NCBI GenBank assembly: GCA_963769935.1
Contig: CAVYNY010000022.1
Span: forward strand, 288,001 to 352,000
Source of the DNA: an uncultured delta proteobacterium
GTDB lineage: Bacteria > Desulfobacterota > Desulfobacteria > Desulfobacterales > JAFDCJ01
DNA: 64,000 nucleotides
Direction: 5' to 3'
Position numbers and translations under genes: made by a program. The notes under the pieces were generated by a model that saw nothing but the letters and a program-made list of their open reading frames with translations, made no database searches and was not told the DNA's origin. Of the stretch, positions 2,005 to 50,264 are shown piece by piece (the first letter of the stretch is position 1; the number at the start of each line of letters is the position of its first letter).

Positions 2005-2316
2005 AGGCGGTTAGAGCGGCGAAGGCGGGAGACTGGGAAGCGGAAGGGCATGGGGCGCAGGGCATAGAGTATAGGGAATGAGCATGGGGCAAAGGGCATT
2101 GAGCATAGGGCGTGGGGTAAAGAGTTAGAGCGAAGGCCATAGCGTCCATTTGGTCGATTGGATTGGGGCTTACGAACTCCCGAGCTTATGTTATGAGCTT
2201 ACCAGCTTACCAGCTTTCAAGCCTTCCAACTTGCCGGCCTTTCTGCGACTCACTATTAACTCAATAAACTCAATAAACACAACAAACACAACAAACTCAA
2301 AAGACCCAATCAACCA
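2005..2316. repeat. Stack of degenerate 9-, 8- and 7-bp tandem repeats
   Basis: + strand AACTCAATA/AACACAACA x5-6, GCTTACCA-type 8-mers, GGGCATA/GAGCATG-type 7-mers, GCGGGAGA/CTGGGAAG 8-mers. Confidence 0.85.
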
Positions 2317-2320
2317 AGCA

Positions 2321-4039
2321 TCAGCACACACCGCACATCCGGCAGGTATCCACCTGGCAGTCCGGTGTGGCCAGGCCTTTGACAGCGCGCTGCCACTCCT
2401 TTTGCAGAAATGATTTTTTGATGCCGTGATCGATGAAATCCCACGGAAGCAGTTCGTCCGGATCACGTTCCCGCAGAACATAAAAGTCCGGGTTGACGGG
2501 AACAGTTTTAAGCGTCGTGGCCCAGTTGCCTCCGTTGGCATGGGCCAGCGCAAGGATATCGGCGACTTTGCGATCGCCGCGCGACAGCAGAGCCTGAATG
2601 TAGCCCCAGCGGGGGATATCAGAATTTATCCGGAGGTTGGCTACCTTGTTCAACTCACTTTTTATTTTTTTTATTTTGTTCTTCAGTACGCCGACGCCCT
2701 CCATTGCCGCCCATTGAAAGGGGGTAAACGGTTTCGGCACAAATGAGTTGAGGCTGACGGTTATGGTGCCGATTCTTTGGCGGGTGCGGCTGGAAGTTAA
2801 AAAGCGATGTTTGATTTTTTTGACCAACGTAATAATCGCATCGACATCCGCTTCGGTTTCGGTCGGAAGTCCGACCATAAAATACAGCTTTATATTCGCA
2901 ATTCCATTTTCGACCAGAACCGACGCGGCATTCAGCACGTCATTTTCAGTGATGCCCTTGTTGATGACCTGGCGCATGCGTTGCGAGCCGACTTCCGGCG
3001 CGATGGTAGCCGTTTTCACATTGCTTTGTTTCAAGGCTGCGACCAGCCCATCCGTTAAACGGTCGGCGCGCAGGGAACTGAATGAAAGTCTGATATCCTG
3101 ATCCCGGAATTTCTTGCATAGTTCTTCGATTCCGGGCAGATCCGATACCGCCGCCCCCACCAGCCCGATGCGATCGGTGATTTGAGCACCTTTTTTTATG
3201 GTTTGTTCAAGCAGCGGGACGGAGCGAAATCTGGGCGGCCGGTAGATAAATCCAGCACTGCAAAAGCGACAGCCGTGGGGACAGCCGCGGCCGGTTTCGA
3301 CTAAAAATGTTTGATCAAAGGTTGTGTCAAGGGCTACGATCGAGCTGCAGGTGGCCGATTGGTCCAGCTCTTTTGTATGCACGCGTTTTATTTTGCGGGG
3401 CACGTCCGCCAGAGGTTTAAAGTCCGCCAGAGTACCGTCGTCATTGTAGCGGGTCTGGTAAAGCGCCGGGACATACGCACCCGGGACGTTGCGGGCCAGG
3501 TTTATCAAAACGCGTCTTTTTATCTGCAGCCGGATCAAAAGTTTGAATAAAAGGCGGGAGCATCTCTTCGGCTTCGCCGATGAAAAAACAGTCGATAAAA
3601 GCGGACATCGGTTCGGGATTTAAAAAGCATGCCACGCCGCCGGCGATAACCAGCGGGTGCCGGTGATCTCTGTCACTCGGCTTGCAGCGGGATACCGGCC
3701 TTTTCCAGCATGGCCAGCACATTGGGATAGTCGTTTTCAAATGACAGGGAAAAGGCGATGATATCGGCCGCGGCAACGGGCCGGCCCGACTCCATGGTAG
3801 TCAGAAGCGGTCGGCCGAGACGGGCTTTCATCCGGCAGAAAAACCCTTTCACATACCACGTGATCATATCGGTTGAAAAGCCCATACAGGGTCAGAAACC
3901 CGAGGTTGGACATGCCGACATGATAGCGGTTGGGGTACGCCAGGGCGATACTGACTCTGGAATTCCAGGATTTTCGGATGGTTCCGATTTCGGCCTTACC
4001 GTGAGGGCGGTTACGCGTTTATCTGATTTTGCGCGGCAT
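2321..4039 (-). CDS. Radical SAM protein (COG1032-like, uncharacterised); several apparent frameshifts
   Basis: Joined frames give ALAYPNRYHVGMSNLG..CERVFLP..ESGRPV..DIIAFSLSFENDY..GGVACFLNPEP..IGEAE..ETGRGCPHGCRFC (CxxxCxxC)..YFMVGLPTE..FVPKPFTPFQW; C-terminal CQVDTCRMCGVC. Confidence 0.85.
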
Positions 4040-4346
4040 ATTGTCGCCTGTCCGTTTTCGCAGCGAAGATGACCGGATCGTTACAGAACATCAGAGGGGT
4101 ACGTGGTCCGTTGCGTTGGTAAAAAAGGGATAGGACCTCAATTCACTTGCGAACTGATTCCCCAATGGTTGTTGCAGCAAGATTGCATCAAGAAAAGTCA
4201 TTCATTACCGTATAATGATGCTGTTCCGGTCAGCAGTCAACAACCCCAATAAGATGCCGTTTCAGACACTTTGAAAATACTGCCGCATCGAAAAACAATC
4301 CTCCCTTCCGCAACAACAGACATTGGATATTTTAGCGAAGGCCCGT

Positions 4347-4400
4347 GAACATTGAATAATGAACAACAGACGCAAACAGCCGACAACTGACAACGGACAT
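4347..4400. repeat. Degenerate 7-bp repeat directly after the ftsZ stop
   Basis: Sense TCCGTTG TCAGTTG TCGGCTG..TCTGTTG. Confidence 0.6.
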
Positions 4401-4402
4401 TC

Positions 4403-5580
4403 CTAATCAGCTTTTCTTCTTAAGAAAGTCGGGACATCCAAATCGACCGTCATTGACGATCACACCGCTGGTGCCGCGGTAAATGGCCCCCGACGATTCT
4501 CCGACCGCCCTTTTCTGGCGGATAAAGGTCGGCTCATCATAATCGACAATTTTTTCCAGATCTTCAGGGGTGATGTCCCTGATTTTTCCCCGCAGCGGCT
4601 GTACCAGCGGCTGTTCCGTTGACCGGTTCTTTGCCGATGCCGGTTGCGATAACCGTCACCCGCATCTCATCGCCCAGGCTGTCGTCCAATGAGGTACCCC
4701 AGAAAATTTCAGCGTCGTCGCCCACTTCTTTGTGAATGAACTCGGATGCCTCGGCAACCTCTTCGAATTCCATGTCGCTGGTGGCGGTGATATTCATCAA
4801 TACTCCCTTGGCGCCTTTAATGGGAATGTCCTCCAGCAGGGGATGGGAGATCGCTTTTTCGGCAGCTTCCACCGCCCGATTTTCACCCGATGCGATGCCA
4901 ATGCCCATCAGGGCCAAGCCGGCCTTGGACATGGTGGTTCTGACATCGGCAAAATCAAGATTAACCACACCCGGCATCATAATCAGATCCGTGATTCCTT
5001 TAACCGAATGCAGCAGGATTTCATCGGCCTTTACAAACATTTCCATCAAGGTGGCTTTTTTGGATGCCAGACCCCGCAGCCGGTCATTGGGAATGGTGAT
5101 GGCGGTATCCACGACCTTCTTCAGAGCCTCGATGGCATCGTCGGCCACTTTGGCGCGCTTTTTACCTTCAAAGGAAAACGGCCGGGTTACCACTGCCACC
5201 GTCAAAGCCCCCAGGTCTTTGCTGATTTCCGCAATGACTGGGGCCGCGCCGCTGCCGGTGCCGCCGCCGAATCCGGCAGTAATGAACACCATGTGACTGT
5301 CGGCCAACGCCTGTCTGATTGCTTCTTCGTTTTCCAGGGCGGCATCCCGGCCTACCTGGGGATTGGCCCCGGCTCCCAAGCCCTCGGTAATATGTTCTCC
5401 CAGCTGAATCCGGACCGACGCTTTGGAAATTTCCAAAGCCTGGGCATCTGTATTGGCCGCAATGAATTTAACTCCCTGAAGATTAGATGCGATCATGTTG
5501 TTGATAGCGTTGCCGCCTGCGCCGCCAACTCCGATAACCTTGATTTTCGCTGATTTTTCCTTGTCCACATAAGTAAACAT
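4403..5580 (-). CDS. ftsZ: Cell division protein FtsZ (two apparent +1 frameshifts in the C-terminal linker)
   Basis: IKVIGVGGAGGNA, GGGTGSG tubulin motif, NLDFADV; conserved tail DLDVPTFLRRKAD* ends at TAG 4403-4405 in a shifted frame. Confidence 0.97.
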
Positions 5581-5600
5581 GTTTTGCCCTCCTACCGAGT

Positions 5601-5792
5601 ATAGTTATTGGTTATTGGTTTTCGTCGTTTCTGAATTCTATCCTCTATCTTCACGAAGGCTGGGAAGCCGGGAAGCTGGGAGGCTGGGAAGTTGCGAAAC
5701 AGAACCCTTTGCCCCGCATTTTGCCTTCCGACTTCGCACACCTCCGACCTCTGTTCTCTGTTTTCTGACATCTGTCTTCTGTCTGTCTGTCT
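5601..5792. repeat. Stack of degenerate 7/8-bp repeats between ftsA and ftsZ
   Basis: Sense GACAGAA-type 7-mers, CTTCCCAG x4, AGATAGA, AACCAAT x3. Confidence 0.85.
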
Positions 5793-7020
5793 TCAAACCA
5801 CATCATGAAACCACTTCTTCATCGTGGTCATGACACGATTGAATATGTTTTTGTCCCGGATCCTGAAATTTCTTTGAATCGCGGTTGCGGGCACCGAACA
5901 GAACCAACCCCACTCCGGTGGCGTACATGGGATTGTTGACCACATCCACCAGGCCTTTGATTCCCTGCGGCTTGCCCAGACGGGTGGGCAGCTTGAAAAC
6001 CGATTCCGCAACTTCCGAGACCCCTTCCAGCAGGGATGTCCCGCCAGTTAAGACAACTCCGGAATTGATGGAATTCTCCATCCGGGCCCGATAAATTTCC
6101 CGATAAACCAGCTCGAAAATTTCCTCCAGCCGGGGTTCCAGTATTTCTCCAAGGATTTGCCGCGGAAGTTTGCGGGATTCACGACCACCCATTCCTGATA
6201 CCTCTATGGATTCATCACTGCTGATATCCCGAGCCAGACAGGTGCCGTATTTTTTCTTAATTTTTTCGGCTTCGGCCTGAGGCGTGCGCAACCCAATTGC
6301 GATGTCGTTGGTCAGGTTGTTGCCTCCCAAAGCCAGCACAAAGGTATGCTTTATATTTTTTCCGGAAAAAACGGCCAGGTCGGTGGTTCCGCCGCCAAGA
6401 TCCAGTAGGGCGGTGCCCAGTTGTTTTTCTTCGTCGGTCAGGACGGCTTCACCGGATGCCAGTGACTCCAGCACAATATCGGAAACATCGAGTCCTGATC
6501 GATTGGCACATTTCACAATATTGTGGGCCGACGCGACGGCCCCGGTAACGATGTGAATTTTGGCCTCCAACCGCACCCCGGCCATTCCCACCGGGTTTTG
6601 AATGCCCGTCTCGTCATCGACAATAAATTCCTGGGGCAGCACATGAATGACTTCACGATCCATGGGAATCGCAACTGCTCTGGCGGCATCGATAACCCGT
6701 TCGACATCGTTTTCGGTGATTTCCGGACCTTTGATGGCAACAATACCGCGGCTGTTAAATCCCGTGATGTGCCCGCCGGCAATACCGGTACACACCGAAG
6801 AAATCTCACAGCCCGCCATTAGTTCAGCCTCTTCTACCGCTTTTTTAATTGATTCCACCGTCGATTCGATATTGATGACCACTCCCTTGCGCAACCCGAT
6901 GGAAGGGTGCGTTCCAATGCCGATAATGCTGATATCCGCCCCGGATGCTTCACCCACTACAGCACAGATCTTGGTCGTTCCGATATCAAGGCCCACGATA
7001 ATATCGTCTGCTCGCCGCAT
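5793..7020 (-). CDS. ftsA: Cell division protein FtsA (one +1 frameshift near the 3' end)
   Basis: VGLDIGTTKI, DLGGGTT, VLTGG; C-terminal helix IFNRVMTTMKKWFHDVV in shifted frame; ATG 7020 has GAGGAGG RBS. Confidence 0.97.
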
Positions 7021-7093
7021 TCTATTCCTCCTCATGATCCCTGCCGGATTGTCGCATGGCTCCTGTCAATGTCGGCAATAGAACCCGCCCGTT

Positions 7094-7951
7094 TTACTGC
7101 AAGCCCAGGGGGTGCACCACGACACGCTCTAAATTGTTCAGATCAATGCGATCAAAATCCAATATGTTCGGTTGACGTTTAAGATATGAAAATAAATTCG
7201 CCAGCATATGATACTTGCCGGGAAAATCGCTGTATCCAAGATTTATGGCTTTGATGCCGTCAAAGGCGTAAACCGTAAGACCGATTTGCCGATCGACTTT
7301 AATTTGCCGGACGAGACGATTCGGCAAAATGCTGCCCTGCTGCAAGCCCATTTGCAATACCTGCATCACCGCTTTAAACGATGCCGAGTGCCCCGATGTT
7401 CGATTTTTCTCTGATGATTGCGGCTGGTCCCATACCGTCAAATCCGAGACATCGAGGCCGCTGACCACCGGCAGATCCGCAGGATCCGATGGATCCCATG
7501 CTTTAAATATCTGGCCCTGACGGTTGATCAGAAATTTTTGCCCGAAATCCACCATTGCCAGTGCATCTTGTTCTTTGATGCGTATGATCAGCCGGGATGG
7601 AATCTCCCGGCGGACCTCGGCTTCGGCAATCCACGGATGGGCCAGCAGTCGTTTGCGAACCAGTGACAGATTAATCGCCAGGATATTATCGCCCATGCGG
7701 ATACCGGCTTGCCGGGCGACAGTCTCCGGCGTTAATCGCTGTGTGCCTTCAATGCTCATCTGCCGGGCCGCAAAATAATCACATTGGGTTGCCAGATCGT
7801 ACACCAGAATGAAAAAGCCGGTCACCGCCGCCAATACAAAGACTGCCGCCAGCGCCTGGCCTGCCAGCATGATGCCCTGTAAGAATTTATTGCGCCGTTC
7901 GGCTCTCAGGGATTTGCGATAATTTTTGCGCGGCTTATTTCGTAAAAACAA
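7094..7951 (-). CDS. ftsQ: Cell division protein FtsQ/DivIB
   Basis: Basic N-terminus, single TM, POTRA segment (LLAHPWIAEAEVRREIPSRLIIRIKE), position before ftsA. Confidence 0.9.
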   Translation of the reverse strand: MFLRNKPRKNYRKSLRAERRNKFLQGIMLAGQALAAVFVLAAVTGFFILVYDLATQCDYFAARQMSIEGTQRLTPETVARQAGIRMGDNILAINLSLVRKRLLAHPWIAEAEVRREIPSRLIIRIKEQDALAMVDFGQKFLINRQGQIFKAWDPSDPADLPVVSGLDVSDLTVWDQPQSSEKNRTSGHSASFKAVMQVLQMGLQQGSILPNRLVRQIKVDRQIGLTVYAFDGIKAINLGYSDFPGKYHMLANLFSYLKRQPNILDFDRIDLNNLERVVVHPLGLQ

Positions 7952-7964
7952 TTTTAGCAGGCCT

Positions 7965-8172
7965 TTTAGTTGATTCAGTAGACTAAGTTTATTGAGTTCA
8001 TTGGGTTCATTGAGTTGACTAAGTCTATTAAATTAATTGAGTTGATAGGTCCTAGTTGATAGCTTCCAGGCTTCTCAGCCTATCTAGATTCTCAACCTCT
8101 CGCTTTCTTATCTTCTCATCTCCTCTTTGTCTGCCATTCTCTCACCTTCTCACCTTCTCACCTTCTCAACTT
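7965..8172. repeat. 8-bp and 9-bp repeat arms between murC and ftsQ
   Basis: Sense GTGAGAAG x3 plus degenerate copies starting within the murC stop codon, then AACTCAATG/AACCCAATG/AACTCAATA 9-mers. Confidence 0.85.
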
Positions 8173-9554
8173 CTTTTCCCCCCGCCTTCCAACTCCTGCA
8201 GCAGCAACTCCCCCACCTTCCAGACATCTCCGGCGCCAAGGGTCAGCAAAACGTCGGCCGGTTTTAAATTTTGCTTCAGGTAAGCCGCCGCATCTTCGAT
8301 CCCCGCCGCATAAACTACTTCCCTGTGGCCGTGAGCCTGAATGCCTTCACCCAGCAACCGGCCGGATACACCTTCGATTTCTTTCTCGCTGGCGGCATAA
8401 ATCGGCAATACGAGCAGAACATCGCATTGGTAGAATGAACGCGTGAAATCATCAAACAGGGCCCGGGTCCGGGTGTAGCGATGCGGTTGAAAAACGACCA
8501 CTTTGCGTCGGCCGGGCCAGCATTTCTCAACTGCCTCCAGGGTGCTTTTAATTTCGGTGGGATGATGCCCGTAATCATCCACCACCGTGATATCATTTGC
8601 CTCACCCTTGATTTCCAGCCTGCGCTGGACGCCTTCAAGGGTTTCCAGCGCTTTTTTGATGGCTGCGAAAGGCACATCCAACTCGATGCCCACCGCGATA
8701 CTGGCCGTGGCGTTGTAGACATTGTGAAGGCCGGGCAGATTCAGGGTAATGCGGCCAAGCTTCTGCCCGTGGCAATAGACGGTGAACCGGCTTTGCCGCT
8801 TCTCAAACGTCACATCCCTTATCTGGAAATCGGCTTGGGAGTTCATGCCATAGGTTGTATAGCGTTTTTTAATTTTAGGGATCAAATCCTGGATCGGCTC
8901 GTTGTCCAGACAAAGGACGGCCAGACCGTAAAATGGTATCCGATCGATAAAGCTCAGAAAGACAGACTTGATGGCATCCAGGTCCGCATAAAAATCCAGA
9001 TGCTCACGATCAATATTCGTGACCACGGCTATGGCGGGCGAGTATTTCAAAAATGATCCATCGCTTTCATCGGCTTCGGCCACGATAAAATCACCCTGGC
9101 CCAAAACGGCGTTGGATCCGATACTTTTCAGCTTCCCGCCGATGACCACCGTCGGATCAAGCCCCCCACGGGCCAATACCGACGCCACTATCGAGGTCGT
9201 TGTGGTTTTACCGTGCGCACCGGCGATGGCCACACTGTATTTTAACCGCATCAACTCGGCCAACATTTCAGCCCTTGGAATTACCGGAATCGATGCCTGC
9301 TCGGCAGCCAGCACCTCGGGGTTGTCGCGGCTGACGGCCGACGAGGTTACGACCACATCGGCGCCGCTGATCTGGTCTGCCAGATGCCCTTCAAAGATAA
9401 TGCCGCCCAATGCTTTGAGCCGCTCGGTGATATCGGAGGATTTCAAATCTGACCCGGATACCCTGTAGCCCAGATTGAGCAGCAACTCGGCAATGCCGCT
9501 CATTCCGATGCCGCCGATTCCGACAAAATGGATGTGATATTTTTTTCGATACAT
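8166..9554 (-). CDS. murC: UDP-N-acetylmuramate--L-alanine ligase
   Basis: HFVGIGGIGMSG, GAHGKTTT, EADESDGSF, DDYGHHPTE, FQPHRYTRT. Confidence 0.98.
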   Translation of the reverse strand: MYRKKYHIHFVGIGGIGMSGIAELLLNLGYRVSGSDLKSSDITERLKALGGIIFEGHLADQISGADVVVTSSAVSRDNPEVLAAEQASIPVIPRAEMLAELMRLKYSVAIAGAHGKTTTTSIVASVLARGGLDPTVVIGGKLKSIGSNAVLGQGDFIVAEADESDGSFLKYSPAIAVVTNIDREHLDFYADLDAIKSVFLSFIDRIPFYGLAVLCLDNEPIQDLIPKIKKRYTTYGMNSQADFQIRDVTFEKRQSRFTVYCHGQKLGRITLNLPGLHNVYNATASIAVGIELDVPFAAIKKALETLEGVQRRLEIKGEANDITVVDDYGHHPTEIKSTLEAVEKCWPGRRKVVVFQPHRYTRTRALFDDFTRSFYQCDVLLVLPIYAASEKEIEGVSGRLLGEGIQAHGHREVVYAAGIEDAAAYLKQNLKPADVLLTLGAGDVWKVGELLLQELEGGGKRS

Positions 9555-9612
9555 TGTTTCGAGTTCCGTGTTACGGGTTGCGCGTTTTGCACTGCGTGTT
9601 TCGCGCTTTGGT
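9555..9612. repeat. Degenerate 7-bp repeat abutting the murC start
   Basis: Sense CGCAACC CGTAACA CGGAACT CGAAACA then ATG. Confidence 0.7.
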
Positions 9613-9620
9613 TCGACTGG

Positions 9621-10736
9621 TCAACCTTTCAAATCATCAATCAACCGATAACAATCATCCACAATAAGCTTGGCGGCATCCGGCCTGCCGAAACGGCGGG
9701 CCCTGGCGGCCATATCATTCAAAGCTGCCGGGTGCGCGGCATAATACGCTATTTTTTCACTTAGAATTTTGCCGTTGAGATCTTTTTCATAAATCATTTC
9801 GGCGGCGCCTTTTTCTGTGAGGCTGCGGGCATTAAACACCTGATGGTCATCCGCCGCGTAAGGGAACGGGATGAATATGACCGCTTTGCCCAGGGCAGTT
9901 ATCTCGGCAACCGTTGTTGCGCCGGCGCGACATATCAGAAGGTCAGTCCGGCTGTAAATTTCGGCCATGTTGTCGAAAAAGGGTTGAACCGTGCAGCCAA
10001 TTTGATTCCGGCGGTAGGCTTCGCCGACCGTCGCTGCGTCCGTCGCGCCGGTCTGATGGACGAAATGCAGGTGTTCTCTTTCTTTCAGATTCGGCAACGC
10101 TTCCATGACCGCCATGTTTATCCTGTGGGCGCCCTGACTGCCGCCGATAATCAGAATCGTAAAATGCCGGTTGCCGCCGGCGTTTTTTTGCCCGTTTTGA
10201 CTGCGATCGGCACCTGCCAGCAATTCACGGCGCACCGGGTTGCCCGTCCACAGGATTTTTTTCGATTGCAACCGCGATCTAGTATTTTCAAACGAAATGT
10301 AAATACGTTTGGCAAAACGCGATAAAATTCTGTTGGTTATACCCGGCAATATATTTTGTTCATGAACAACAGTCGGTATTCGCTGCAGCCAGGCACCGAT
10401 TATTACCGGTCCGGCAGAATAGCTTCCGAGCCCGATAGCCAGATCCGGCCGGAATTTTTTAATGATCTGCCGAGATTGCGAAATTCCGATGGGAATTTTT
10501 ACGGTCGATTTCAGCTGATTCCATATTCCCCGGCCCTTAATGCCGGCGGCTGTGATACAGTCAAGTTCGAAGCCCGCTTTGGCAAGCACCGATCTCTCCA
10601 GCGGATTGCCGGTGCTTACAAAAATGATCCTGGTTGCTGCATTCCGGCACCGGAACTCCTGGGCAATGGCAATTCCGGGAAACAGGTGGCCGCCGGTTCC
10701 ACCGCCGGCGATCAGGATGCCGAGCGCACGATTCAT
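9621..10736 (-). CDS. murG: Undecaprenyl-PP-MurNAc-pentapeptide GlcNAc transferase
   Basis: AGGGTGGHLFP, HEQN, GNPVR, GGSQGA, CRAGATT; start placed at MNRALG because the longer ORF extension is repeat-derived. Confidence 0.97.
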   Translation of the reverse strand: MNRALGILIAGGGTGGHLFPGIAIAQEFRCRNAATRIIFVSTGNPLERSVLAKAGFELDCITAAGIKGRGIWNQLKSTVKIPIGISQSRQIIKKFRPDLAIGLGSYSAGPVIIGAWLQRIPTVVHEQNILPGITNRILSRFAKRIYISFENTRSRLQSKKILWTGNPVRRELLAGADRSQNGQKNAGGNRHFTILIIGGSQGAHRINMAVMEALPNLKEREHLHFVHQTGATDAATVGEAYRRNQIGCTVQPFFDNMAEIYSRTDLLICRAGATTVAEITALGKAVIFIPFPYAADDHQVFNARSLTEKGAAEMIYEKDLNGKILSEKIAYYAAHPAALNDMAARARRFGRPDAAKLIVDDCYRLIDDLKG

Positions 10737-10789
10737 TGTACTGCCAGCATCATTTAAAGCGCTCTTTTCCTTAAGGCCGGCTTGCCCTA

Positions 10790-10895
10790 TTGCTGATAGG
10801 CTTAAGGATTTTAAAAAAGCTGATAGCCGATAGCTGACAGCTGATTGTCTGAATGATGCAATCCTTGCTTTTCCATGAGCTATGAGCAATGGGCT
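10790..10895. repeat. GCTCATA and GCTATCA 7-bp repeats between ftsW and murG
   Basis: Sense GCTCATAGCTCATG then CAGCTGTCAGCTATCGGCTATCAGCT. Confidence 0.7.
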
Positions 10896-10923
10896 GGAAG
10901 CGTGCATCTTTTAACCTGTACCT

Positions 10924-12078: not shown

Positions 12079-13514
12079 GATTTTTGCAATTTCAACTTTT
12101 CGACCGCCCGCCGGAAATCATCACCCCGCTGGGCATAATTGTCGTACATATCGAAGCTGGCGCAGCCGGGCGACAACAGAACGACATCACCCGGATTCCC
12201 CGTCTCATAAGCCTGGTCAACCGCGTCCGCCATGGAATCAGCCGCAGACGTTGCTGTGATATCCTCTAAGGCCTTGCGGATAAGATCCGCGGCCCGGCCC
12301 ATGACAATCAATTTTCTGGTATGCCGGGCGACGACCTCCCGGAGTTCCCTGAAATTGCCGCCTTTATCCAGTCCGCCCATGATCAAAACTACCGGCGCGT
12401 CAAAGCATTCCACCGCCCGGGCCACGGCATCCACATTGGTTGCTTTGGAGTCATTGAAAAATTCAACACCGTTTATCTCATCAATGTACTCCAGCCGGTG
12501 GGCACTGCCCTTGAATTGATCCAGGGTGTCCTGAATCGCCTGTGATCGGGCACCCAATGCCAGGGCCGCCAGGCCGGCGGCACAGGCGTTCTCAAGATTG
12601 TGCCGGCCCCTGAGTTTGATATTGGCTAGACTAAACGATATCGGATTGCGGCCTCCGGCCTCAAGGAGCCTGCGCCCGGGTGGAATACCGGAATTTACAT
12701 TTTGGATTCTTGCGGCCTCAGCGGTTAATTCATCCGAGCGCAATGTGATATGTTGATCATTTAAAATTGCACCTTCTTCATCAGGTGCCGGGTTTGGATA
12801 AATCAATTTACGCGCCTTGATATTGCCGGCCAGGGAACGAATTATTGGATCAGCGCCATTTAAAACGGCAACATCGTCGGCCTGCTGGTTTTCAAAGAGC
12901 CGCATTTTAGATGCGGCATAGGCGGCAAAATTCGGATAGCGATCCAGATGATCGACTGTGATATTCAACAGCACGCCAACCTGCGCCCTGAAACTTTTGA
13001 TGGTGTCCAGCTGAAAACTGCTGATCTCGGCTACGATGACATCCACCGGCTGCCTGCCGTTCACGTAGTCGATGAGCGGATTGCCGATGTTGCCGCCGAC
13101 AAAAACCTTAAAACCGGATCGGACCAGCATATCGCCCACCAGCTCGGTCGTAGTCGTTTTGCCGTTGGTGCCGGTGATCGCCACAATGGGCTGCCGGATA
13201 AAACGCGAAGCCAGTTCAATTTCGCCGATCACCGGAATTCCGCGTTCCCGGGCCTGAATGACCGGCTCGATCGTATGGGAGACGCCCGGGCTCAAGACAA
13301 TCAGGTCTGCTGCCTTAAAGGTTTCCGTCCGGTGTCGGCCCAGCTCCATGGGAATGCCCATGGCTTGGATTTCATGCGCCTGAGACGCCAGTTTGCTTTC
13401 GGCCGCCATGTCGGTTGCCACAACCGCCGCCTCCCTGTTCTTCAGGAATCGGGCTACGGCAATACCCGTTTTTCCGAGGCCTACGACAACAATTTTTTTT
13501 CCGGCAAGCTGCAT
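12075..13514 (-). CDS. murD: UDP-MurNAc-L-Ala--D-glutamate ligase
   Basis: VVGLGKTG, SPG, GTNGKTTT, EISSFQL, DHLDRY, NDSKATN, LLSPGCASFD. Confidence 0.97.
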   Translation of the reverse strand: MQLAGKKIVVVGLGKTGIAVARFLKNREAAVVATDMAAESKLASQAHEIQAMGIPMELGRHRTETFKAADLIVLSPGVSHTIEPVIQARERGIPVIGEIELASRFIRQPIVAITGTNGKTTTTELVGDMLVRSGFKVFVGGNIGNPLIDYVNGRQPVDVIVAEISSFQLDTIKSFRAQVGVLLNITVDHLDRYPNFAAYAASKMRLFENQQADDVAVLNGADPIIRSLAGNIKARKLIYPNPAPDEEGAILNDQHITLRSDELTAEAARIQNVNSGIPPGRRLLEAGGRNPISFSLANIKLRGRHNLENACAAGLAALALGARSQAIQDTLDQFKGSAHRLEYIDEINGVEFFNDSKATNVDAVARAVECFDAPVVLIMGGLDKGGNFRELREVVARHTRKLIVMGRAADLIRKALEDITATSAADSMADAVDQAYETGNPGDVVLLSPGCASFDMYDNYAQRGDDFRRAVEKLKLQKS

Positions 13515-13560
13515 AATCAATAATTTTACTAAAATGGTCGATTATTCATGTAGTTCCAAT

Positions 13561-13620
13561 CCGACCGCCTCGCTCTTGCTGGCAGGAGGGCAGGGCCTGA
13601 GCAAGGGCAGAGGCGGTCGG
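13561..13620. repeat. GC-rich inverted repeat (REP-like hairpin) between mraY and murD
   Basis: CCGACCGCCTC-GCTCTTGCT ... AGCAAGGGC-A-GAGGCGGTCGG; no U-tract. Confidence 0.7.
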
Positions 13621-13627
13621 AGCTTGG

Positions 13628-14707
13628 CTATCTGAGTTTCAGCGTACTCATGGCCAAAAGAGCCAGGGCAATGGCAATGATCCAGAAGCGGACGATTACC
13701 TTGGGCTCCGGCCAACCCTTGAGTTCAAAATGATGGTGCAGCGGCGCCATTTTAAATATTCTTTTGCCGCTGGTCATTTTAAAAAAACCGACCTGGAAAA
13801 TGACCGACAGTGCTTCAATGACAAACAATCCGCCCACCAGCGCCAATAAAATTTCCTGTTTAATTATAACGGCCACCGTTCCCAGCGCTGCACCCAGCGA
13901 CAGGGAGCCGACGTCGCCCATAAAAATTTCGGCGGGATAGGAGTTAAACCACAGAAAACCGAGGCCCGCCCCGGCCAGAGCCCCGCAGAAGATCGTTAAT
14001 TCTCCTGCGCCGGCCACGTAGTTTAACTGCAGGTAACCGGCGATTTTGACATTCCCCGTCACATAGGCAAAAATCATATAGGTTGCCGCTGCGATGATCA
14101 CCGGACCGATGGCAAGTCCGTCGAGACCATCGGTCAGATTGACGGCGTTGGACGCGCCGACAATGACAAATATTGCAAAAATTATATAGCCCCAGCCGAA
14201 ATCCGGTGAAATATTTTTGAAAAAGGGCAGGGTAACCTGCGTTGAAAAATTCGGGCTGGCATAAACCAAAATTCCGGTGATCAGAGCGACAATCACCTGC
14301 AACAGCAGCTTGCGCCGAACGGTAAGTCCTTTGCTTTGTTTTTTGACCTGCATCAAATAATCATCGATAAATCCGATCAACCCGAAACCCAGCAGAACAA
14401 GAAGTACGATCCATACAAATAAATTGGTCAAGTCACTCCACAGGAGAACGGAAACCGTAATGGCCAGCAAGATCAATGTGCCGCCCATGGTCGGTGTGCC
14501 GGCTTTGCCAAGGTGGGTTTTGGGACCATCATCGCGTATGTATTGTCCCACCTGCATCTTTGCCAGTTTGCGGATCATCCAGGGACCCAGCAGAAAGCAA
14601 ATGAAAAAGGCCGTCAGACTGGCATAGATGGTCCTGAACGTGATGTAGCGAAAGACGTTCAAGACCGTAAATGTCGTGTGCAGTGGATACAACAGGTGAT
14701 AAAGCAT
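13628..14707 (-). CDS. mraY: Phospho-N-acetylmuramoyl-pentapeptide transferase
   Basis: [42 protein letters not shown]. Confidence 0.98.
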
Positions 14708-14712
14708 TTTTA

Positions 14713-14798
14713 ATCCCTACATTGCCTAAATTGTCTAAAATTAAGGGTGCTAACCATTTTTATGATCGCTGTATCCAATGACTAATAACAAATAACCA
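14713..14798. repeat. 7-bp and 9-bp repeat arms between murF and mraY
   Basis: Sense TGGTTAT TTGTTAT TAGTCAT after the stop; TTAGACAAT TTAGGCAAT GTAGG before the start. Confidence 0.7.
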
Positions 14799-16229
14799 TT
14801 AACTTTTTATCTCTCCCGCCCGATCCTTCAGCCCCTGGACCACCTTTTCCATGGCCATGCCGCGTGAACCTTTTACCAGGACCCAGTCGCCGGGTTGCAA
14901 CCGGGCGATCAGATCTTCGACTATCTCCTCGCGGGATCCGGTGATGAAATCGGCCTCCGGCAGACCTGCATTGCGGGCGCCGGCTGCCACAGAATCGGCA
15001 TATTCTCCGTAGGCATATAATCGGCTGATTCCGGATTGGGCGGCCAGAGCACCGACCTGGCTGTGCAGCGGCGCCGCCTGCCGGCCGAGCTCCAGCATAT
15101 CCCCGGCGACAAAAATTCCTCTGGCCCCGGCGCGCACCGTGTTAAAGGCTGACAGGGCGGCCTTCATCGATTCCGGATTGGCATTGTAGGTATCGTCGAT
15201 AATGTGGATCCCGTTGGGTGTATGATGGATGTTCATCCGGCCACTGACCGGTTCAACCGCCTCCAACCCGGCTTTAATGTCAGCGGCCGACACCCCCAGC
15301 AGATTCCCGACAGCCGCCGCGGCCAGGGCATTGGTCACCATAAAGCGGCCGGGAGAATTCAGGCGGATGGATATGCGCGCTTCAGCAAGCTTCAGCATAA
15401 AGCATATTCCATTTTCTTTCTCGGCGACATCCTCCGCTCTGACTGCGGCATCCGGCGCAAGACCATAGAGACGCACTTGGTGGGCAGTTTGGCGGGCCAG
15501 TTGCCGTACCCGGGAATCGTCGGCATTGAGAACTGCTTTGCCGTTTGGGCGCAGACTATTCAATAGAGACCCTTTTTCCCGTGCGACCCCTTCAATTGAT
15601 CCCAGGCCTTCCAGGTGGGCCGGGCCGATATTGGTAATGACAGCGATATCCGGCATGCAGATTTCGGCCAATCTTGCGATTTCCCCCGGGTTGTTGGTGC
15701 CCAGCTCCACGACGGCCCATTGATGATCGGGCTCAAGACCCAGCAGGGTCAAGGGCAAGCCGATCTGGTTATTGAAATTTCCGGCCGTCGCCAGCGTGTT
15801 GTACTGCCGTGAGATGACAGCGGCGGTCAATTGACGGGTGGTGGTTTTGCCGTTGGAGCCCGTAATGGCCACAACCGAAGCCTTGGAGCGCCGGCGGTTG
15901 AAGGCCGCCATATCACCCAGGGCGCGGGTAGTGTCTTTCACCGCGACGGCCGTAACACCTTTTTGTTTCCACTTTGCGACAGGCAGTTTGCCAGCTTCCC
16001 GGCGGCTGATCACCAACCCCCGTCCCCCCTGTTCGACAACATCCGATGCAAAGGTATGGCCGTCATGAATCTCGCCGATAATGGCTATAAAAACGCCGTC
16101 GGCAGTGACTTTGCGCGAGTCGATAAAGATCCCCGCAAACGACTGCTGCAATTCGCCGCACAAAAGCTTACCACCGGTGGCTTCAAGGATCTCCCTGGTT
16201 GTCCAGGGTATGGGTCTGTCGCTGCTCAT
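14799..16229 (-). CDS. murF: UDP-MurNAc-tripeptide--D-Ala-D-Ala ligase
   Basis: DSR, ITGSNGKTTT, NFNNQIGLP, DDTYNANP, GDMLELG, LVKGSRG. Confidence 0.97.
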   Translation of the reverse strand: MSSDRPIPWTTREILEATGGKLLCGELQQSFAGIFIDSRKVTADGVFIAIIGEIHDGHTFASDVVEQGGRGLVISRREAGKLPVAKWKQKGVTAVAVKDTTRALGDMAAFNRRRSKASVVAITGSNGKTTTRQLTAAVISRQYNTLATAGNFNNQIGLPLTLLGLEPDHQWAVVELGTNNPGEIARLAEICMPDIAVITNIGPAHLEGLGSIEGVAREKGSLLNSLRPNGKAVLNADDSRVRQLARQTAHQVRLYGLAPDAAVRAEDVAEKENGICFMLKLAEARISIRLNSPGRFMVTNALAAAAVGNLLGVSAADIKAGLEAVEPVSGRMNIHHTPNGIHIIDDTYNANPESMKAALSAFNTVRAGARGIFVAGDMLELGRQAAPLHSQVGALAAQSGISRLYAYGEYADSVAAGARNAGLPEADFITGSREEIVEDLIARLQPGDWVLVKGSRGMAMEKVVQGLKDRAGEIKS

Positions 16230-16284
16230 TATATTTTTACTTTTTTGAGGTTTCTCCTCTTCACTTTTTCGGAGAAATTATCAA

Positions 16285-16428
16285 CTATTAGCTGATAGCT
16301 GATAGCTGATGGCAAGATGGATTTTGGCCTGCTTTACTATGAGCTATGAGCTCTTGTATCTCAGTCCTCAGCACTTAGTTCCGAGCTCCGAGCGTCCGGC
16401 ATCGAGAATCAGGTATCCAGCATCAAAC
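16285..16428. repeat. Stack of five 7-bp repeat families between murE and murF
   Basis: Sense GATGCTG, CTCGGAG, GTGCTGA/GGACTGA, GCTCATA x2, GCTATCA x3. Confidence 0.8.
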
Positions 16429-18072
16429 ATCCAGCTTCGCCAGCGCTTTTCTGGCCTCTTCCCGGTCATCAAAGTCTATCGTTTTCTTCCCGATAATCTG
16501 GTACGTTTCATGTCCTTTGCCGGCAATTATTACGGCATCGTTCGGCCTGGATGCCATTATGGCCAGCTCAATAGCGCGTCGACGGTCCGGTTCAACGATA
16601 TATCCTTTTTTATCAATCCCAGTTTTCACATCCTGCACTGAATATTGGATGCCGCCCGCCGCTTTGATCCCCGGTAATATCTGATCGATGATGGCAGCCG
16701 GCTCTTCGGTACGCGGGTTGTCCGATGTCACGATCGCCAGATCGCAAAGCCGGGCGGCAATCTCTCCCATCTGAGGGCGCTTGTCCCGGTCGCGGTCCCC
16801 ACCGCAGCCGAATACGCAGATGATCCCGGCCGGGGCAATTTGCTTTAAGGCGGACACCGCATTTTTCAGGGCATCCGGTGTATGGGCATAATCCACGTAG
16901 ACAAAACGTTCTGTAGCATTTTCGATCCGCTCAAGGCGGCCGGGTATGGCCGATAGTGATTCGACGCCGGCTTTAATTGCGGACAGAGGTATTTTCAGCG
17001 CTGCAGCCGTCCCGGCGGCACTGAGAATATTTGCGAGATTATGTATTCCCACAAGGGGAGTTTTGAAATCAAAACTCCCCTGTGGGGTGGAAACCCTCCC
17101 CTGGGTGCCCGTTAATCCATAGCGGGAGGTTTCGGCCTTAATTTCACAAGCAGGGGTCGATCCGGTTTTAATAATCGGCAATGACAGATCTTTCGCCAGC
17201 TCTGCCCCTTTGGGATCATCACAATTGATAACGGCCACCGCTTTATCTTTTTTGGGTCCGCAGTTCAGATACTCGGTAAATAGGCGCTTTTTGCAGGACC
17301 AGTACGCTTGCATGTCGCCATGAAAATCGAGGTGATCCTGGCTCAAATTCGTAAAGACGGCCACATCAAACCGGCAGTTTCTGATCCGGAATAGCGCCAT
17401 GGCATGGGAAGACGCTTCCATTACGACATGGGTGACTCCGGCCTGCAGCATTTCCGACATAATGCGCTGGAGATCCAGGGATTCCGGAGTCGTCACAGGA
17501 TTGGGGAACGTTTTGTCAGCATAGCGATAATTTATGGTTCCAATTACACCAACCTTAAAATCGGCGGCCGACAGGATACTTTCGATTAAATAAGCGACGG
17601 TGGTCTTACCGTTGGTGCCGGTGATGCCGATCAGGGTCATATGATCCGACGGCCGGCTGAAAAAACAGGCGGCCAAATCAGCCAGTGCCGTGCGGGTATC
17701 CCGCACGTGGACGATGATCGGTTGGCTTTGTGGCAACGTCGACCGGCCTTCTTTAAGAAAGGATCGATCCGGTTTCTTTTGGACCACCACGGCTGCCGCT
17801 CCCCTTGCCAGTGCCTGACCGATAAAATCATGGCCGTCCGCCCTGTGACCCTCAATGGCAACGAAAAGGCCATTTGGCTCCACTTCCTGGGCTCGGCAAT
17901 GAATTGAACTGATGTCGGTATCCGGCGAGTCGGCAGTGGGCATAGGACCAAGGGTATAGCGCACCTTGGCAACGCTTTTTGCGCTTTGCGCTTTGCCTTC
18001 TGCCTTCAGGCTGAATATTCCAATGGGTTCAATCGCTTTTAGTAAGGTTGAAAGCTGCACCTGCTCACCCAT
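16423..18072 (-). CDS. murE: UDP-MurNAc-L-Ala-D-Glu--meso-DAP ligase (with a repeat-derived N-terminal insert)
   Basis: GITGTNGKTT, TTP, MEASSHA, FTNLSQDHLDFH, VDYAHTPDAL, FGCGGDRD, DNPR, AGKGHE. Confidence 0.97.
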   Translation of the reverse strand: MGEQVQLSTLLKAIEPIGIFSLKAEGKAQSAKSVAKVRYTLGPMPTADSPDTDISSIHCRAQEVEPNGLFVAIEGHRADGHDFIGQALARGAAAVVVQKKPDRSFLKEGRSTLPQSQPIIVHVRDTRTALADLAACFFSRPSDHMTLIGITGTNGKTTVAYLIESILSAADFKVGVIGTINYRYADKTFPNPVTTPESLDLQRIMSEMLQAGVTHVVMEASSHAMALFRIRNCRFDVAVFTNLSQDHLDFHGDMQAYWSCKKRLFTEYLNCGPKKDKAVAVINCDDPKGAELAKDLSLPIIKTGSTPACEIKAETSRYGLTGTQGRVSTPQGSFDFKTPLVGIHNLANILSAAGTAAALKIPLSAIKAGVESLSAIPGRLERIENATERFVYVDYAHTPDALKNAVSALKQIAPAGIICVFGCGGDRDRDKRPQMGEIAARLCDLAIVTSDNPRTEEPAAIIDQILPGIKAAGGIQYSVQDVKTGIDKKGYIVEPDRRRAIELAIMASRPNDAVIIAGKGHETYQIIGKKTIDFDDREEARKALAKLDV

Positions 18073-19795
18073 TTGCCTTGATTTCCAGGGATACCCTTAA
18101 TTTGGTTTTGTCACTTTCAGGAGCGACATTTAAATAGTTGAGCGTTTGCTGGGCGATATCTTTAAATACCGGTGCGGCAACTGCGCCCCCGTAATAACTT
18201 TCCTTGGGTTCATCGATGACGACCAGAATCGCTATTTGCGGATGATCGGCCGGCGTAAATCCCACAAAAGAGGCCATATGTTTGCTGTTCGAATATTTTC
18301 CATTTTCATCGAGCTTGCGGGTGGTGCCTGTTTTACCGCAAACCGAATATCCATCCAGAGCGGCATTTACGCCGGTGCCGCCCTCGGTAATGACGGACTG
18401 CATTATTTTTTTTACAATGCCGGCTGTTCGGGCGGAAACGACACGCCGCACCTGCTGTGCCTTGTAGGTTTTAACGGGAAGACCGTTTTGATCGGTCAGC
18501 TCCTTTACAATATAAGGTTTCATGAGGATTCCGTCATTGGCGATAGCCGAAACCGCCGTTATCAATTGAACGGCTGAAACGGCCAATCCATGACCGAAAG
18601 AAATGGCACCGATGTCTATATCCGACCAGGAGGAATAATAGGAGAGACTGCCGGTTGTTTCACCGGGGCAGTCAATGCCTGTTTTCTCGCCAAAACCAAA
18701 GCTGTGAAATGTTTGATAAAGCTTTTTGGCTCCCACCTTTTCACCGACTTTTGCAGCCCCGATGTTACTGGAGAACTTAATGATTTGCCGCAGCGACAGC
18801 CAGCCATGCCGTTCGATATCATGAACGACATTTCTCCCAATTTTATAGGCGCCGTTCTCACAATAAAAAATGTCGTCTGGTTTGATGTTGCCATATTCCA
18901 GTGCTGCCGCCGCGCTGAAAATCTTGATGGTTGAGCCCGGCTCAAATGGATCGGTGATGGCCCGGTTGCGCCAGAGGGATCGGTCGTATTCCAAATAGGA
19001 ATTCGGATTGATCGTCGGATATTGAGCGATCGCCAGAATGGCGCCTGTCTGCGGCTGCATGACAATTGCCAAAGCGGATGCCGCTGAATATTGATCAACA
19101 GCCTGCTGCAGGGCGTTTTCAGTTATATACTGGATGGTGCTGTCAATGGTCAGTACCAGGTTATGCCCGCTGTCGGCCGTCATTTGCCGGTTTTCGGGAC
19201 TAAAACCGTTGCCCAGGGCATCCTGGAAGAACGTAAAATTATTGTGATTTCCTGTCAGCTGACGGTTGTAGAAAAATTCAATACCTTCCAAGCCCCCGCC
19301 ATCCAAACCGGTAAAACCCAGCGCCTGGGCCGCTAAAGTCGTATTGGGATAATAGCGGTTGTATTCCTGGACAAAATCGATGCCCGGCAACTCAAGATCT
19401 TTAACCAGGCTGGTTTCTTTGGCCGTTGTTTGGCGCTTGATCCAGACAAAGGATTTGTCGATTGTGAGCCGTTTTTTGACAGCACGCGCGTCCAACTTCA
19501 AAATTTTAGCCAGAGCCTTGGCACTTGCGTTAATATCCTTTATCCGGGACGGGTAGGCAGCAATCGATGTCACATTCACGCTGACGGCCATTTCCCGCAT
19601 ATTGCGGTCATAAATAATGCCGCGCTTGCCGGATGTGGTTAACGATTTTTCATACTGACCGGTGGCTATCTGCGACAGCCACTGACTCCGATAAACTTGC
19701 AACTGTACCGCTTTGGCGACAATGGCCGCAAAGGCCCCCAGAAAGATGAGACCCACCAGCAGGATTCGCATTTTGAAATATTTATTTTCCATCAC
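18065..19795 (-). CDS. ftsI: Penicillin-binding protein 3 / FtsI
   Basis: N-terminal TM, RGIIYDRN, EPGSTIK (SxxK), SSN, KTGT. Confidence 0.95.
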   Translation of the reverse strand: MMENKYFKMRILLVGLIFLGAFAAIVAKAVQLQVYRSQWLSQIATGQYEKSLTTSGKRGIIYDRNMREMAVSVNVTSIAAYPSRIKDINASAKALAKILKLDARAVKKRLTIDKSFVWIKRQTTAKETSLVKDLELPGIDFVQEYNRYYPNTTLAAQALGFTGLDGGGLEGIEFFYNRQLTGNHNNFTFFQDALGNGFSPENRQMTADSGHNLVLTIDSTIQYITENALQQAVDQYSAASALAIVMQPQTGAILAIAQYPTINPNSYLEYDRSLWRNRAITDPFEPGSTIKIFSAAAALEYGNIKPDDIFYCENGAYKIGRNVVHDIERHGWLSLRQIIKFSSNIGAAKVGEKVGAKKLYQTFHSFGFGEKTGIDCPGETTGSLSYYSSWSDIDIGAISFGHGLAVSAVQLITAVSAIANDGILMKPYIVKELTDQNGLPVKTYKAQQVRRVVSARTAGIVKKIMQSVITEGGTGVNAALDGYSVCGKTGTTRKLDENGKYSNSKHMASFVGFTPADHPQIAILVVIDEPKESYYGGAVAAPVFKDIAQQTLNYLNVAPESDKTKLRVSLEIKANG

Positions 19796-19893
19796 GAATC
19801 AGGTTCTCATTTTTTCTACTCTGATAATTTATAGCCAATGCCTGATACAGAATAGCTTGGGTTTTAGGTTCCTTATTAAAAAGGCTATCATCA

Positions 19894-19941
19894 TTAATTT
19901 TAGGCAATTTAGGCATTTTAGTTCATTTCAGGCATTTATAT
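19894..19941. repeat. 9-bp repeat arm after the ftsL stop
   Basis: Sense AAATGCCTG AAATGAACT AAAATGCCT AAATTGCCT AAAATT. Confidence 0.7.
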
Positions 19942-20253
19942 TTATGGCATCACGATTGTTTGTTTCGCCCTCGGCGAAATCAAACCCAGCTGCTCTCTGG
20001 CTATTTTGGCAATGCGCCGGGGAGATTTAAGACGCGCCAGTTCAATTGTTAAGTTATCCTGCATCGCGGAGAGTTGTTGGACGGTTTGGGCCTGCTTGGC
20101 GATATCATACTTAACCTGGGTGGACTGTACCCGACACCACGTGTAAAAAAGGAGTTCGGCGATGAATACGGCCATCAAAACCAGACAGGTCATAACCATT
20201 TTCGGGTTGCGTTGCTTGCGCTTCCGGTTGCTGATCTTTACGTTTTTGGCCAT
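19942..20253 (-). CDS. ftsL: Cell division protein FtsL
   Basis: Basic N-terminus, TM, coiled coil, LKSPRRIAKIAREQLGL; between rsmH and ftsI. Confidence 0.88.
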   Translation of the reverse strand: MAKNVKISNRKRKQRNPKMVMTCLVLMAVFIAELLFYTWCRVQSTQVKYDIAKQAQTVQQLSAMQDNLTIELARLKSPRRIAKIAREQLGLISPRAKQTIVMP

Positions 20254-20261
20254 CGTATGAA

Positions 20262-20452
20262 AGATTCAGTTGATTCGATTACTGGTTGATGAGTTATAAA
20301 GGATCGTTTAGTACGTTTTGATCGTCCCGGTTAAACAAAAGACAAAAAGGTTTAACGGGATAAATTCGGATCGTTAAGGTCGTCACCGTCTCATCTTCCC
20401 GGCTTCTGATCTTCTCAACTTCTGAGGTTCTAATTTTCTCACCTTCTGTCTT
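20262..20452. repeat. 8/9-bp repeat arms between rsmH and ftsL
   Basis: Sense GTGAGAAA/GTTGAGAA/GATCAGAA purine 8-mers after the stop; GACCTTAAC/GATCAAAAC and AACTCATC/AACTGAATC units before the start. Confidence 0.75.
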
Positions 20453-48297: not shown

Positions 48298-48483
48298 ACT
48301 TCGTATTTCACTGGGCAAGCTTGAGGAGCTTCGCCTGCGACGAATTGACGAGCGGCACTGCGTGCCTTTATGAGCGTCCTGCAATGCAGGACTTGAGAAA
48401 GAGTTTAAAACGCAGATCTTAATTGTTCCAACCCCACAGATCAAAAATTCCCTAAAGCGAAGCGCTCCGCGAAGCAGTGAGCC

Positions 48484-48975
48484 ATGTTTCCCGAACTCAT
48501 AACAGATCTTTTGCAGGAAGGCTACAAGGTTAGCTTCAGTGCACCAGGTCATAGTATGTTTCCCACCATTATGGCCAATGAAACCATTGTGGTCGAACCC
48601 ATTGATCCCGGAACGGTCAGGATGGGAGACATCATATTATATCGAACAAACGGCCGGCTAATTGCCCACCGGGTTGTCGGCATCAATGTGCCTCTTGATG
48701 ACGGCTCTTCGTCACGCTCAGACCCTGAGGCGCAGTCCTCAGTCCTCAGTCCTCATTGCTTATTCATTTTGCGAGGCGATGCTTCCCCCGCATGCGATGC
48801 GCCCGTAAAAGCCGGACAGATTCTGGGCAAAGTTGTTTCGATCCAAAGAAACGGCCGTAGTATTGAGCCGTATAGTTTTAAATACAAAATAGGCTGCTTG
48901 GCCACTGTCTGGAGTGGTCGTATTAAACGATTACCTCGAAGAATCTTCTCAATTTTTTTCTTATGGGGGGGATAA
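48484..48975 (+). CDS. S24/S26 family signal peptidase-like protein
   Basis: GHSMFPTI, GDIILY, AHRVV, LRGD..D, ILGKV. Confidence 0.82.
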   Translation: MFPELITDLLQEGYKVSFSAPGHSMFPTIMANETIVVEPIDPGTVRMGDIILYRTNGRLIAHRVVGINVPLDDGSSSRSDPEAQSSVLSPHCLFILRGDASPACDAPVKAGQILGKVVSIQRNGRSIEPYSFKYKIGCLATVWSGRIKRLPRRIFSIFFLWGG

Positions 48976-50125: not shown

Positions 50126-50264
50126 ACCGCCCGGAAAATGGTACATTAAGGGTTGCAAATTGTTCTTGGAAGATTGAAGAAAGTCTTTGGATCGAGCATC
50201 CGGAGGATTAATTAATTCATGCTGCGCATTTTGCTTTACGCTGAGCCGCTTTTGCCTGTTTAAC

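Follow-up and report, generated by a model that had tools for sequence, protein, structure and literature searches.

Intergenic repeats whose orientation follows the neighbouring genes have been published before: in Xanthomonas, GGGAATC repeats show a left-after-stop, right-before-start pattern (PMC4692102), and for the TAACTGA repeats of Beggiatoaceae the start-side half of this pattern has been reported (PMC4679880). Small four-helix-bundle proteins have appeared in other settings. For 23S rRNA intervening sequences that carry an open reading frame (ORF), the available sections of PMC4990558 leave function and origin unresolved, while Avd of diversity-generating retroelements is described as a pentamer, similar to S23 proteins, that contacts a defined RNA element (10.1101/2023.10.23.563531). 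In the rolling-circle elements IS801 and IS1294, the terIS end comprises GTTC with a subterminal palindrome, and in IS91 orf121 lies upstream of tnpA (10.1101/2025.01.24.634351). In the parts of this literature that we consulted, neither the polarised heptamer-type repeats nor the rRNA-intervening-sequence protein has a known origin or function. Here, we describe both in a single element, which has fixed ends, encodes a transposase that can be recognised as such, and has left recent copies as well as derivatives without cargo. The stretch of DNA analysed, referred to as the window, comprises 64,000 nucleotides (nt) of an uncultured delta proteobacterium (assembly GCA_963769935.1, contig CAVYNY010000022.1, positions 288,001 to 352,000); on its minus strand lies the dcw cluster, with a radical SAM gene after it, and most dcw junctions carry degenerate arrays of short repeats, here called arms. 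These arrays are probably relics of repeated DNA-level insertions of four-helix cassettes or of derivatives without cargo, and rolling-circle (HUH) transposases are the likely movers.

Four-helix-bundle genes between complementary arms

The first-pass annotation of the window described degenerate 7-9-base-pair (bp) arrays at the dcw junctions, and all motifs that it quoted are present. When each of the 12 dcw spacers was compared with 300 dinucleotide shuffles, 7-9-bp periodicity was above chance in 10 of them (0-4 of 300 shuffles reach the observed value). The spacers without periodicity above shuffles are mraY-murD (174/300 reach the observed value), which contains a non-periodic hairpin, and ftsQ-ftsA (229/300), which has neither array nor hairpin. 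In the whole 8-Mb genome (G000), the arrays listed by TRF with a score of at least 40 number 581, 328 and 248 at periods 7, 8 and 9, compared to 5 at period 6 and 66 at period 10; 551, 323 and 222 of the former are non-coding. TRF lists the arrays of the window as well. At a score of at least 34, 1,712 of 2,020 arrays are intergenic.

The arms are very probably the ends of cassettes, as the first-pass annotation had proposed, since the filled form, with a four-helix-bundle gene between left and right arm, was found. All seven PF05635 genes of the genome lie above the Pfam cut-off, the TIGR02436 cut-off is exceeded by 3/3 proteins checked, and the sole PDB match of the cargo protein is 2rld, with five chains. 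Six of the seven genes are flanked by complementary arms that start at the upstream stop; the seventh (C27) has repeats in the same sense on either side. The family occurs in all 23 genus genomes searched. The cassette loci analysed comprise 89 of 164 PF05635 matches (14 of the 164 lie outside the matches listed, and L082, one of 60 fetched, was left out), and inverted arms scored better than 20 shuffles in 71 of 78 distinct filled loci. The arm unit tracks the protein: it is shared in 27 of 47 protein pairs that are at least 65% identical versus 18 of 1,384 pairs below, some pairs being orthologous sites. The flanks are protein-coding genes and one tRNA-like gene, and of 66 cases in which the upstream gene could be assigned, many at orthologous sites, 65 have it in the same direction as the cargo gene; clear co-directionality is limited to these gene-bearing cassettes. 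In L027, L029 and L108, a second left-type array lies 3' of the cargo gene's own stop, ahead of the right arm, and in L127 an armed four-helix cassette follows the end of an integrase-like gene that is interrupted by an unrelated IS91-type element.

Two candidate cargoes had been named in the first-pass annotation, of which the four-helix-bundle protein stood (6/7 genes armed) and GxxExxY fell, as its intact copy has long direct repeats. A GxxExxY gene lies among several direct repeats of ~150 bp at G000 C8:188562-188912. A search for other cargo between cognate arms gave 34 left-gene-right cases, 6 of them within a single family; of these 6, one is the known cassette and four are ordinary long genes, and other cargo was rejected.

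Loss of cargo, also part of the earlier proposal, is seen as internally deleted genes between kept arms. Forty-eight filled loci map to 28 G000 junctions, of which 3 are empty (0-7 nt) and 5 have the gene, including G000's own locus and one case without the gene start; 4 hold gene fragments, and the rest have other arms or none. At C16:272195, N- and C-terminal codons are joined and flanked by the same arms as in L040 and L104. The window itself contains one decayed cassette:

48298..48483, plus strand: left-arm relic, last ~20 nt of a four-helix-bundle gene (48402-48422), right-arm relic

In relative G008 (L072), the whole gene is present at the orthologous junction. Compared with 200 shuffles, the left arm of the window relic scores above all, the right arm equals the shuffle maximum, and the whole-ORF score is not above the maximum.

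An IS91-family carrier of arms and gene

Six near-identical PF05635 matches of relative G007 belong to one element, built in the order fixed left end, 8-mer left arm, four-helix gene, IS91-family transposase, small ORF, right arm, fixed right end. The transposase starts 5 nt 3' of the four-helix gene and has the domains PF14319 and PF04986, as in a Y2 HUH transposase with a Zn-binding domain; the transposase half reaches 197 bits with NF033538, for which the cut-off is 125. The left end has GAAC plus a palindrome, in agreement with the terIS of IS801 and IS1294, and the right end is unlike it. Two copies span the whole transposase gene, which is interrupted by a small palindrome, and four are truncated; the 34 right-end matches in G007 include cargo-free copies of 225-342 nt. 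Left flanks vary, and left and right flanks differ, with no target duplication seen in a comparison made without empty sites. The right flank is AT-rich, TTWAATTA, at 30 G007 loci and 28 metagenome matches, although without empty sites the exact end is not fixed. One copy follows a stop codon, and another lies inside the AT-rich loop (centre) of another family's arm element, the uninterrupted form of which was found. As judged from its sequence, the G007 element is an IS91-family transposon bearing arms plus a four-helix gene. A rolling-circle transposon thus likely copies one cassette family, and it is highly probable that the IS91-type transposase moves the 8-mer arm family.

The small palindrome has inserted three or four times in the G007 element (L051-L056, L111), once in frame within the four-helix gene and once within the transposase. 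An IS110 lies within one G007 copy, and truncated copies are deleted between palindromes.

How closely do arms and protein travel together? The transposase subfamily is widespread (265 proteins), and 80 loci were taken. Members at least 69% identical to L150 mostly have ends, arms and gene; members 54-58% identical often have similar ends and neither arms nor gene, except L293 and L301. In these two, the gene lies on the strand opposite to the transposase and is of a different subfamily in each; the two subfamilies share 33-43% identity with one another and with the first. Their arms have other motifs and enclose gene, transposase and small ORF, which is the whole transposon interior. The closest chromosomal relatives, L063 for L293 (67/108 identical) and L022 for L301 (57/114), have the same or similar arm motifs. 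Among 53 metagenome loci of the subfamily, complementary arms score above shuffles in 20 of the 24 that have the gene and in 1 of the 29 that do not, the single gene-less armed locus being a deletion derivative; these loci are kin, so the counts overstate independence. The transposase trees are quick trees with a midpoint root, which neither order the events nor tell if gene and arms are ancestral in the subfamily. Just 3' of the small ORF of the armed transposon in L150 lies an ORF (L150:1848-3173, minus strand) that we take to be reverse-transcriptase-like, of the group II intron type.

The carrier covers three arm families, with multi-copy evidence for one, and we infer its extension to the families of the window. 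That HUH enzymes moved these families as well is possible, with the balance leaning slightly to the other side; they lack a conserved outer end.

The dcw junctions and the meaning of polarity

Apart from ftsQ, ftsL and the radical SAM gene, the names used here for genes are presumed from sequence features, as are the labels REP-like, murB and S24. The features of the window are as follows:

2005..2125, minus strand: two right arms, of the 7-mer CCATGCC family and then of the 8-mer CTTCCCAG family, which precede the promoter region of an Fe-S oxidoreductase gene
2190..2312, minus strand: left arms 3' of the radical SAM stop, of the 9-mer ATTGAGTTT family and then of an 8-mer family
4350..4402, minus strand: 7-mer left arm ~3 nt past the ftsZ stop, as corrected for an assembly frameshift
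5598..5795, minus strand: ftsA-ftsZ spacer with left arms GACAGAA, GGTCGGAA and GGGCAAA, then right arms CTTCCCAG and AACCAAT
7965..8200, minus strand: murC-ftsQ spacer with left 8-mer arm GAGAAGGT and right 9-mer arm AACTCAAT
9560..9612, minus strand: murG-murC right arm of the GCGCAAC family (filled form in L040 and L104)
10810..10890, minus strand: ftsW-murG left/right pair of a single 7-mer family (GCTCATA / TCAGCTA), common to several relatives
13520..13590, minus strand: GC-rich non-periodic hairpin 3' of mraY, not an arm, present in most genus relatives
14712..14800, minus strand: murF-mraY spacer with left arm TGGTTAT at the stop and right arm TAGGCAAT of a different family
16285..16435, minus strand: murE-murF spacer with left arms GATGCTG (overlapping the stop), GGAGCTC/CTGAGGA and GCTCATA, then right arm TCAGCTA
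19890..19940, minus strand: ftsL-ftsI left 9-mer arm AAATGCCTA (filled form in L041 and L105)
20300..20452, minus strand: rsmH-ftsL spacer with a left 8-mer arm, then a right AACGATC arm with a small dispersed hairpin
48733..48755, plus strand: 7-mer array read in frame within a signal-peptidase-like ORF; the G008 orthologue is without the array
50140..50352, minus strand: left 8-mer arm 3' of the 50362 gene, then a dispersed cargo-free element with 25 copies in both orientations

All 19 arm segments of the window gave their best score against filled-cassette arms in the expected orientation, some margins being small. The ATTGAGTTT family at 2190..2312 is that of the filled cassette on G000 C16, and the small hairpin inside the AACGATC right arm has 13 copies in the genome. 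Arm GAGAAGGT starts within the final murC codons and provides the murC stop; both overlaps of arms with stop codons noted earlier (murC, murE) are present in the sequence. In the relatives' dcw loci, the same junction holds other arm families or near-zero spacers. With most dcw junctions hit, and with arms that provide new stop codons and C-termini, core operons have been remodelled.

Several further observations concern these spacers. Arms are read in frame as new C-termini in MurG of L007 and L016 and in MurC of L002. The hairpin at 13520-13590 is retained in most genus relatives while the surrounding arms come and go. Tiny hairpins lie in element centres or within arms in the dcw spacers of L001, L003, L004, L008 and L009, as do palindromes that we take to be REP-like. 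Three relatives outside the genus (L017, L019, L020) have an insert of ~930-1,000 nt between murC and ftsQ, with motifs that we presume to be MurB-like; it is absent at window 7952-8165 and in the fetched genus relatives.

The arms had also been expected to be present in reads. Short-read contigs of public DNA runs, which may include the source sample, span two arm-bearing spacers, murF-mraY with a single differing letter in 1,011 and ftsL-ftsI with 11 in 946, so the arms there are not assembly artefacts. Single extra bases at window 3513, 3677, 3809, 4618 and 5865 break the radical SAM gene, ftsZ and ftsA; as these bases are missing from short-read contigs of three or four runs, the frameshifts are likely single-base assembly errors. 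Genes were called by a simple purpose-made caller, with reliable stops and less reliable starts, and assembly frameshifts create false spacers.

Genome-wide, orientation is not random: the stop-proximal/start-proximal pattern is significant in most large families, as the first-pass annotation had anticipated. Left arms start within 10 nt of a stop in 220 of 527 cases, and 131 of 249 two-armed spacers hold same-family arms versus 25 expected. Left precedes right in 369 of 371 pairs across all spacer types, an order that is partly built in because 'left' is defined by spacer position. The annotation had taken this polarity as a sign of insertion in the direction of transcription, which the polarity does not show. 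An inverted left-right pair is identical on both strands, so any such element, inserted in either orientation, yields left arms after stops and right arms before starts; accordingly, scoring of the plus strand alone still finds polarity in 23 families (1,288 arrays). Cargo-free elements with asymmetric interiors occur in both orientations (12:17, 3:8 and 8:2, the last with p 0.11), on which ground transcription polarity of cargo-free elements was rejected; the sole skewed case (10:1) is a hairpin within a right arm. A young cargo-free element, 97% identical over 268 nt, adjoins CAGGTGT arms in both orientations (G000 C8:55780-56496, C9:131535-131997 and ~40 more).

Origin of the arms and comparison with known elements

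How could repeated insertion produce the dcw spacers? New elements would land in the AT-rich centre of older ones, and nested insertion into such a centre stacks left arms before right arms. Junctions may tolerate insertions only between the stop codon and the ribosome-binding site, and a gene-bearing cassette would persist in an operon mainly if translated in the operon's direction. The four-helix protein may bind its own arm motif and act on the element ends, in place of Orf121 of IS91.

Several observations weigh against repeated cassette insertion, besides the partly built-in order of the arms. In the dcw cluster, the arms are without a four-helix gene: none was found at E<0.05 in the window or in 60 dcw loci of relatives (20, plus 40 of 149 positions, some ended by contig ends), and the prediction of filled alleles in relatives came true only at other junctions, among them window 48298-48483 in G008. 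Recognisable gene DNA remains in only 4 of 192 left-right centres, so most footprints would be old or derive from cargo-free copies. The window arm families have fixed inner motifs and ragged outer ends, with no conserved outer end among them. G000 has the armed transposon only as a relic, namely one deleted copy (C13) together with 18 right-end relics, and one G007 copy sits after a right arm, contrary to the nesting rule. Among transposase-free filled loci, the transposon's right-end motif occurs in 1 of 83 and its left end in 0 of 83. Neither the 11 PF01797 (Y1 transposase) matches of the genome, 0/11 of which have arrays nearby, nor 30 distant IS91-type loci, without arm pairs around the transposase, qualify as carriers, and both were rejected.

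A bolder extension of the cassette reading, to which we give only a small chance, is that the four-helix protein dictates the repeats that flank it: each subfamily would read, or would have written, 7-9-base arrays at both ends of the DNA unit that expresses it, and rolling-circle transposases would spread the armed unit. If true, a single system of end marking, coded by a protein, would have produced the thousands of heptamer-type arrays found in genomes of this kind, and a family known for 30 years without a function would gain a role in transposition.

Slightly less probable still is that the protein specifies the repeat and, by itself or together with a polymerase or reverse transcriptase (RT) of the host, has it added at DNA ends or breaks. 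Arms would then arise around any unit or break on which it acts, and many empty pairs would never have held cargo. Such addition would suit L293 and L301, where arms enclose gene, transposase and small ORF despite the inverted genes and match the motifs of L063 and L022, although the L293 arm score merely ties the shuffle maximum. Fixed inner and ragged outer ends would likewise be expected, as would the many centres without gene DNA; however, for 56 of 192 centres of empty pairs, the inner motifs are found again in untranslated flanks of cassettes that hold the gene (also L105). Slippage accounts for the change in copy number of arm units (L027, L029, G000 C11), and no polymerase or RT gene was found among the cassette flanks examined.

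An RNA-level element, comparable to the 23S rRNA intervening sequences, is an improbable source. Arms would pair in the mRNA, RNase III would excise the gene, and the element would spread in the transcribed direction by way of an RNA intermediate. In Coxiella, the same protein family lies in a stem that RNase III excises, according to the available sections of PMC4990558. Ten RT matches are present in the genome, gene-bearing cassettes are co-directional, arrays are rarer in divergent spacers (3.7 versus 10.9-13.1 per 10 kb in other spacers), and families differ in their sense-strand ratio of left to right arms (chi-square 54.8, 22 degrees of freedom). A Rho-type cause of this family asymmetry was rejected, as neither G-C skew (p 0.43) nor purine content (p 0.07) correlated with it significantly. 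Base-pairing in mRNA, which the earlier annotation had also proposed, has left no mark of selection: stem mismatches on the sense strand show no excess of G-U over A-C in 99 empty (153:142) or 73 filled pairs (293:321), and the sense strand has no duplex-energy advantage. Moreover, cargo-free elements lie in both orientations, two transposons carry the gene in antisense to the transposase, and the sole carrier found is a DNA transposase. RNA joints that skip the C9 cassette were rejected as a sign of excision; they also occur in DNA runs and match cargo-free paralogues, and thus carry no information on it.

That the arrays are host simple repeats arisen by slippage and kept as regulatory stems, with gene and transposon merely between them, is very improbable: for Xanthomonas, Nostoc and Beggiatoaceae, polarised heptamers are described as features that may be regulatory (PMC4692102, PMC4679880, as far as the available sections go), and one ftsW-murG pair is common to many relatives, yet the same junction has different families in different relatives and is empty in others, the motif tracks the protein subfamily, and multi-copy elements with precise ends exist.

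Finally, we would like to place the armed cassettes and their presumed DNA-level movement in the context of known systems, as described in the accessible parts of the cited sources. Like the arms, the heptamers of Xanthomonas and Nostoc are intergenic, lie in one orientation after stops and as the complement before starts, often form convergent pairs, and are rare between divergent genes (PMC4692102). Unlike the many families here, those repeats and the ones of Beggiatoaceae comprise one or two motifs per genome, and no carrier element appears in the sections available (PMC4692102, PMC4679880); the words 'helix bundle' and 'intervening sequence' are absent from PMC4679880, PMC4692102 not having been word-searched. 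The Coxiella S23p intervening sequences have the same protein family within terminal inverted repeats, as in the cassettes (PMC4990558). Unlike them, the cassettes lie at mRNA gene junctions and in a transposon interior, not in an rRNA gene, and their arms, degenerate 7-9-bp arrays, fall into 20 or more families and show no sign of selection for RNA pairing. Avd is an accessory of a mobile-element enzyme, a role that may resemble that of the four-helix protein here, but its partner is a reverse transcriptase (10.1101/2023.10.23.563531).

Our literature search, with subscription journals mostly outside it, found no title or abstract that joins protein, arms and an IS91 element. Bacterial MITEs (miniature transposable elements with inverted repeats) and REP/TnpA-REP systems are short, many-copy, intergenic and non-autonomous, and nest in one another, in all of which the window elements resemble them. 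Unlike in REP/TnpA-REP, the periodic arms are tied to a passenger protein, and the genome's Y1 transposases are without arms nearby; unlike in an IS91-derived MITE, the window arm families are without terIS/oriIS ends.

The closest relatives of the G007 element are those of the IS91 family (IS91, IS801, IS1294), which likewise have a Y2 HUH transposase, unlike ends, no target duplication, a left end that starts with GAAC, or GTTC when the opposite strand is read, next to a short palindrome, and a small ORF directly upstream of tnpA (10.1101/2025.01.24.634351). In the G007 element, the four-helix gene takes the place of orf121. Unlike in the IS91 family, the product of this upstream ORF is thus a four-helix-bundle protein, both ends have periodic complementary arms on their inner side, a further ORF of ~86 amino acids follows tnpA, and the right flank, as far as the end can be placed, reads TTWAATTA rather than GTTC/CTTG. 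The new part is the carrier, an IS91-family transposon with arms and a four-helix gene; with it, repeats that had long gone unexplained have a way of spreading that can be tested.

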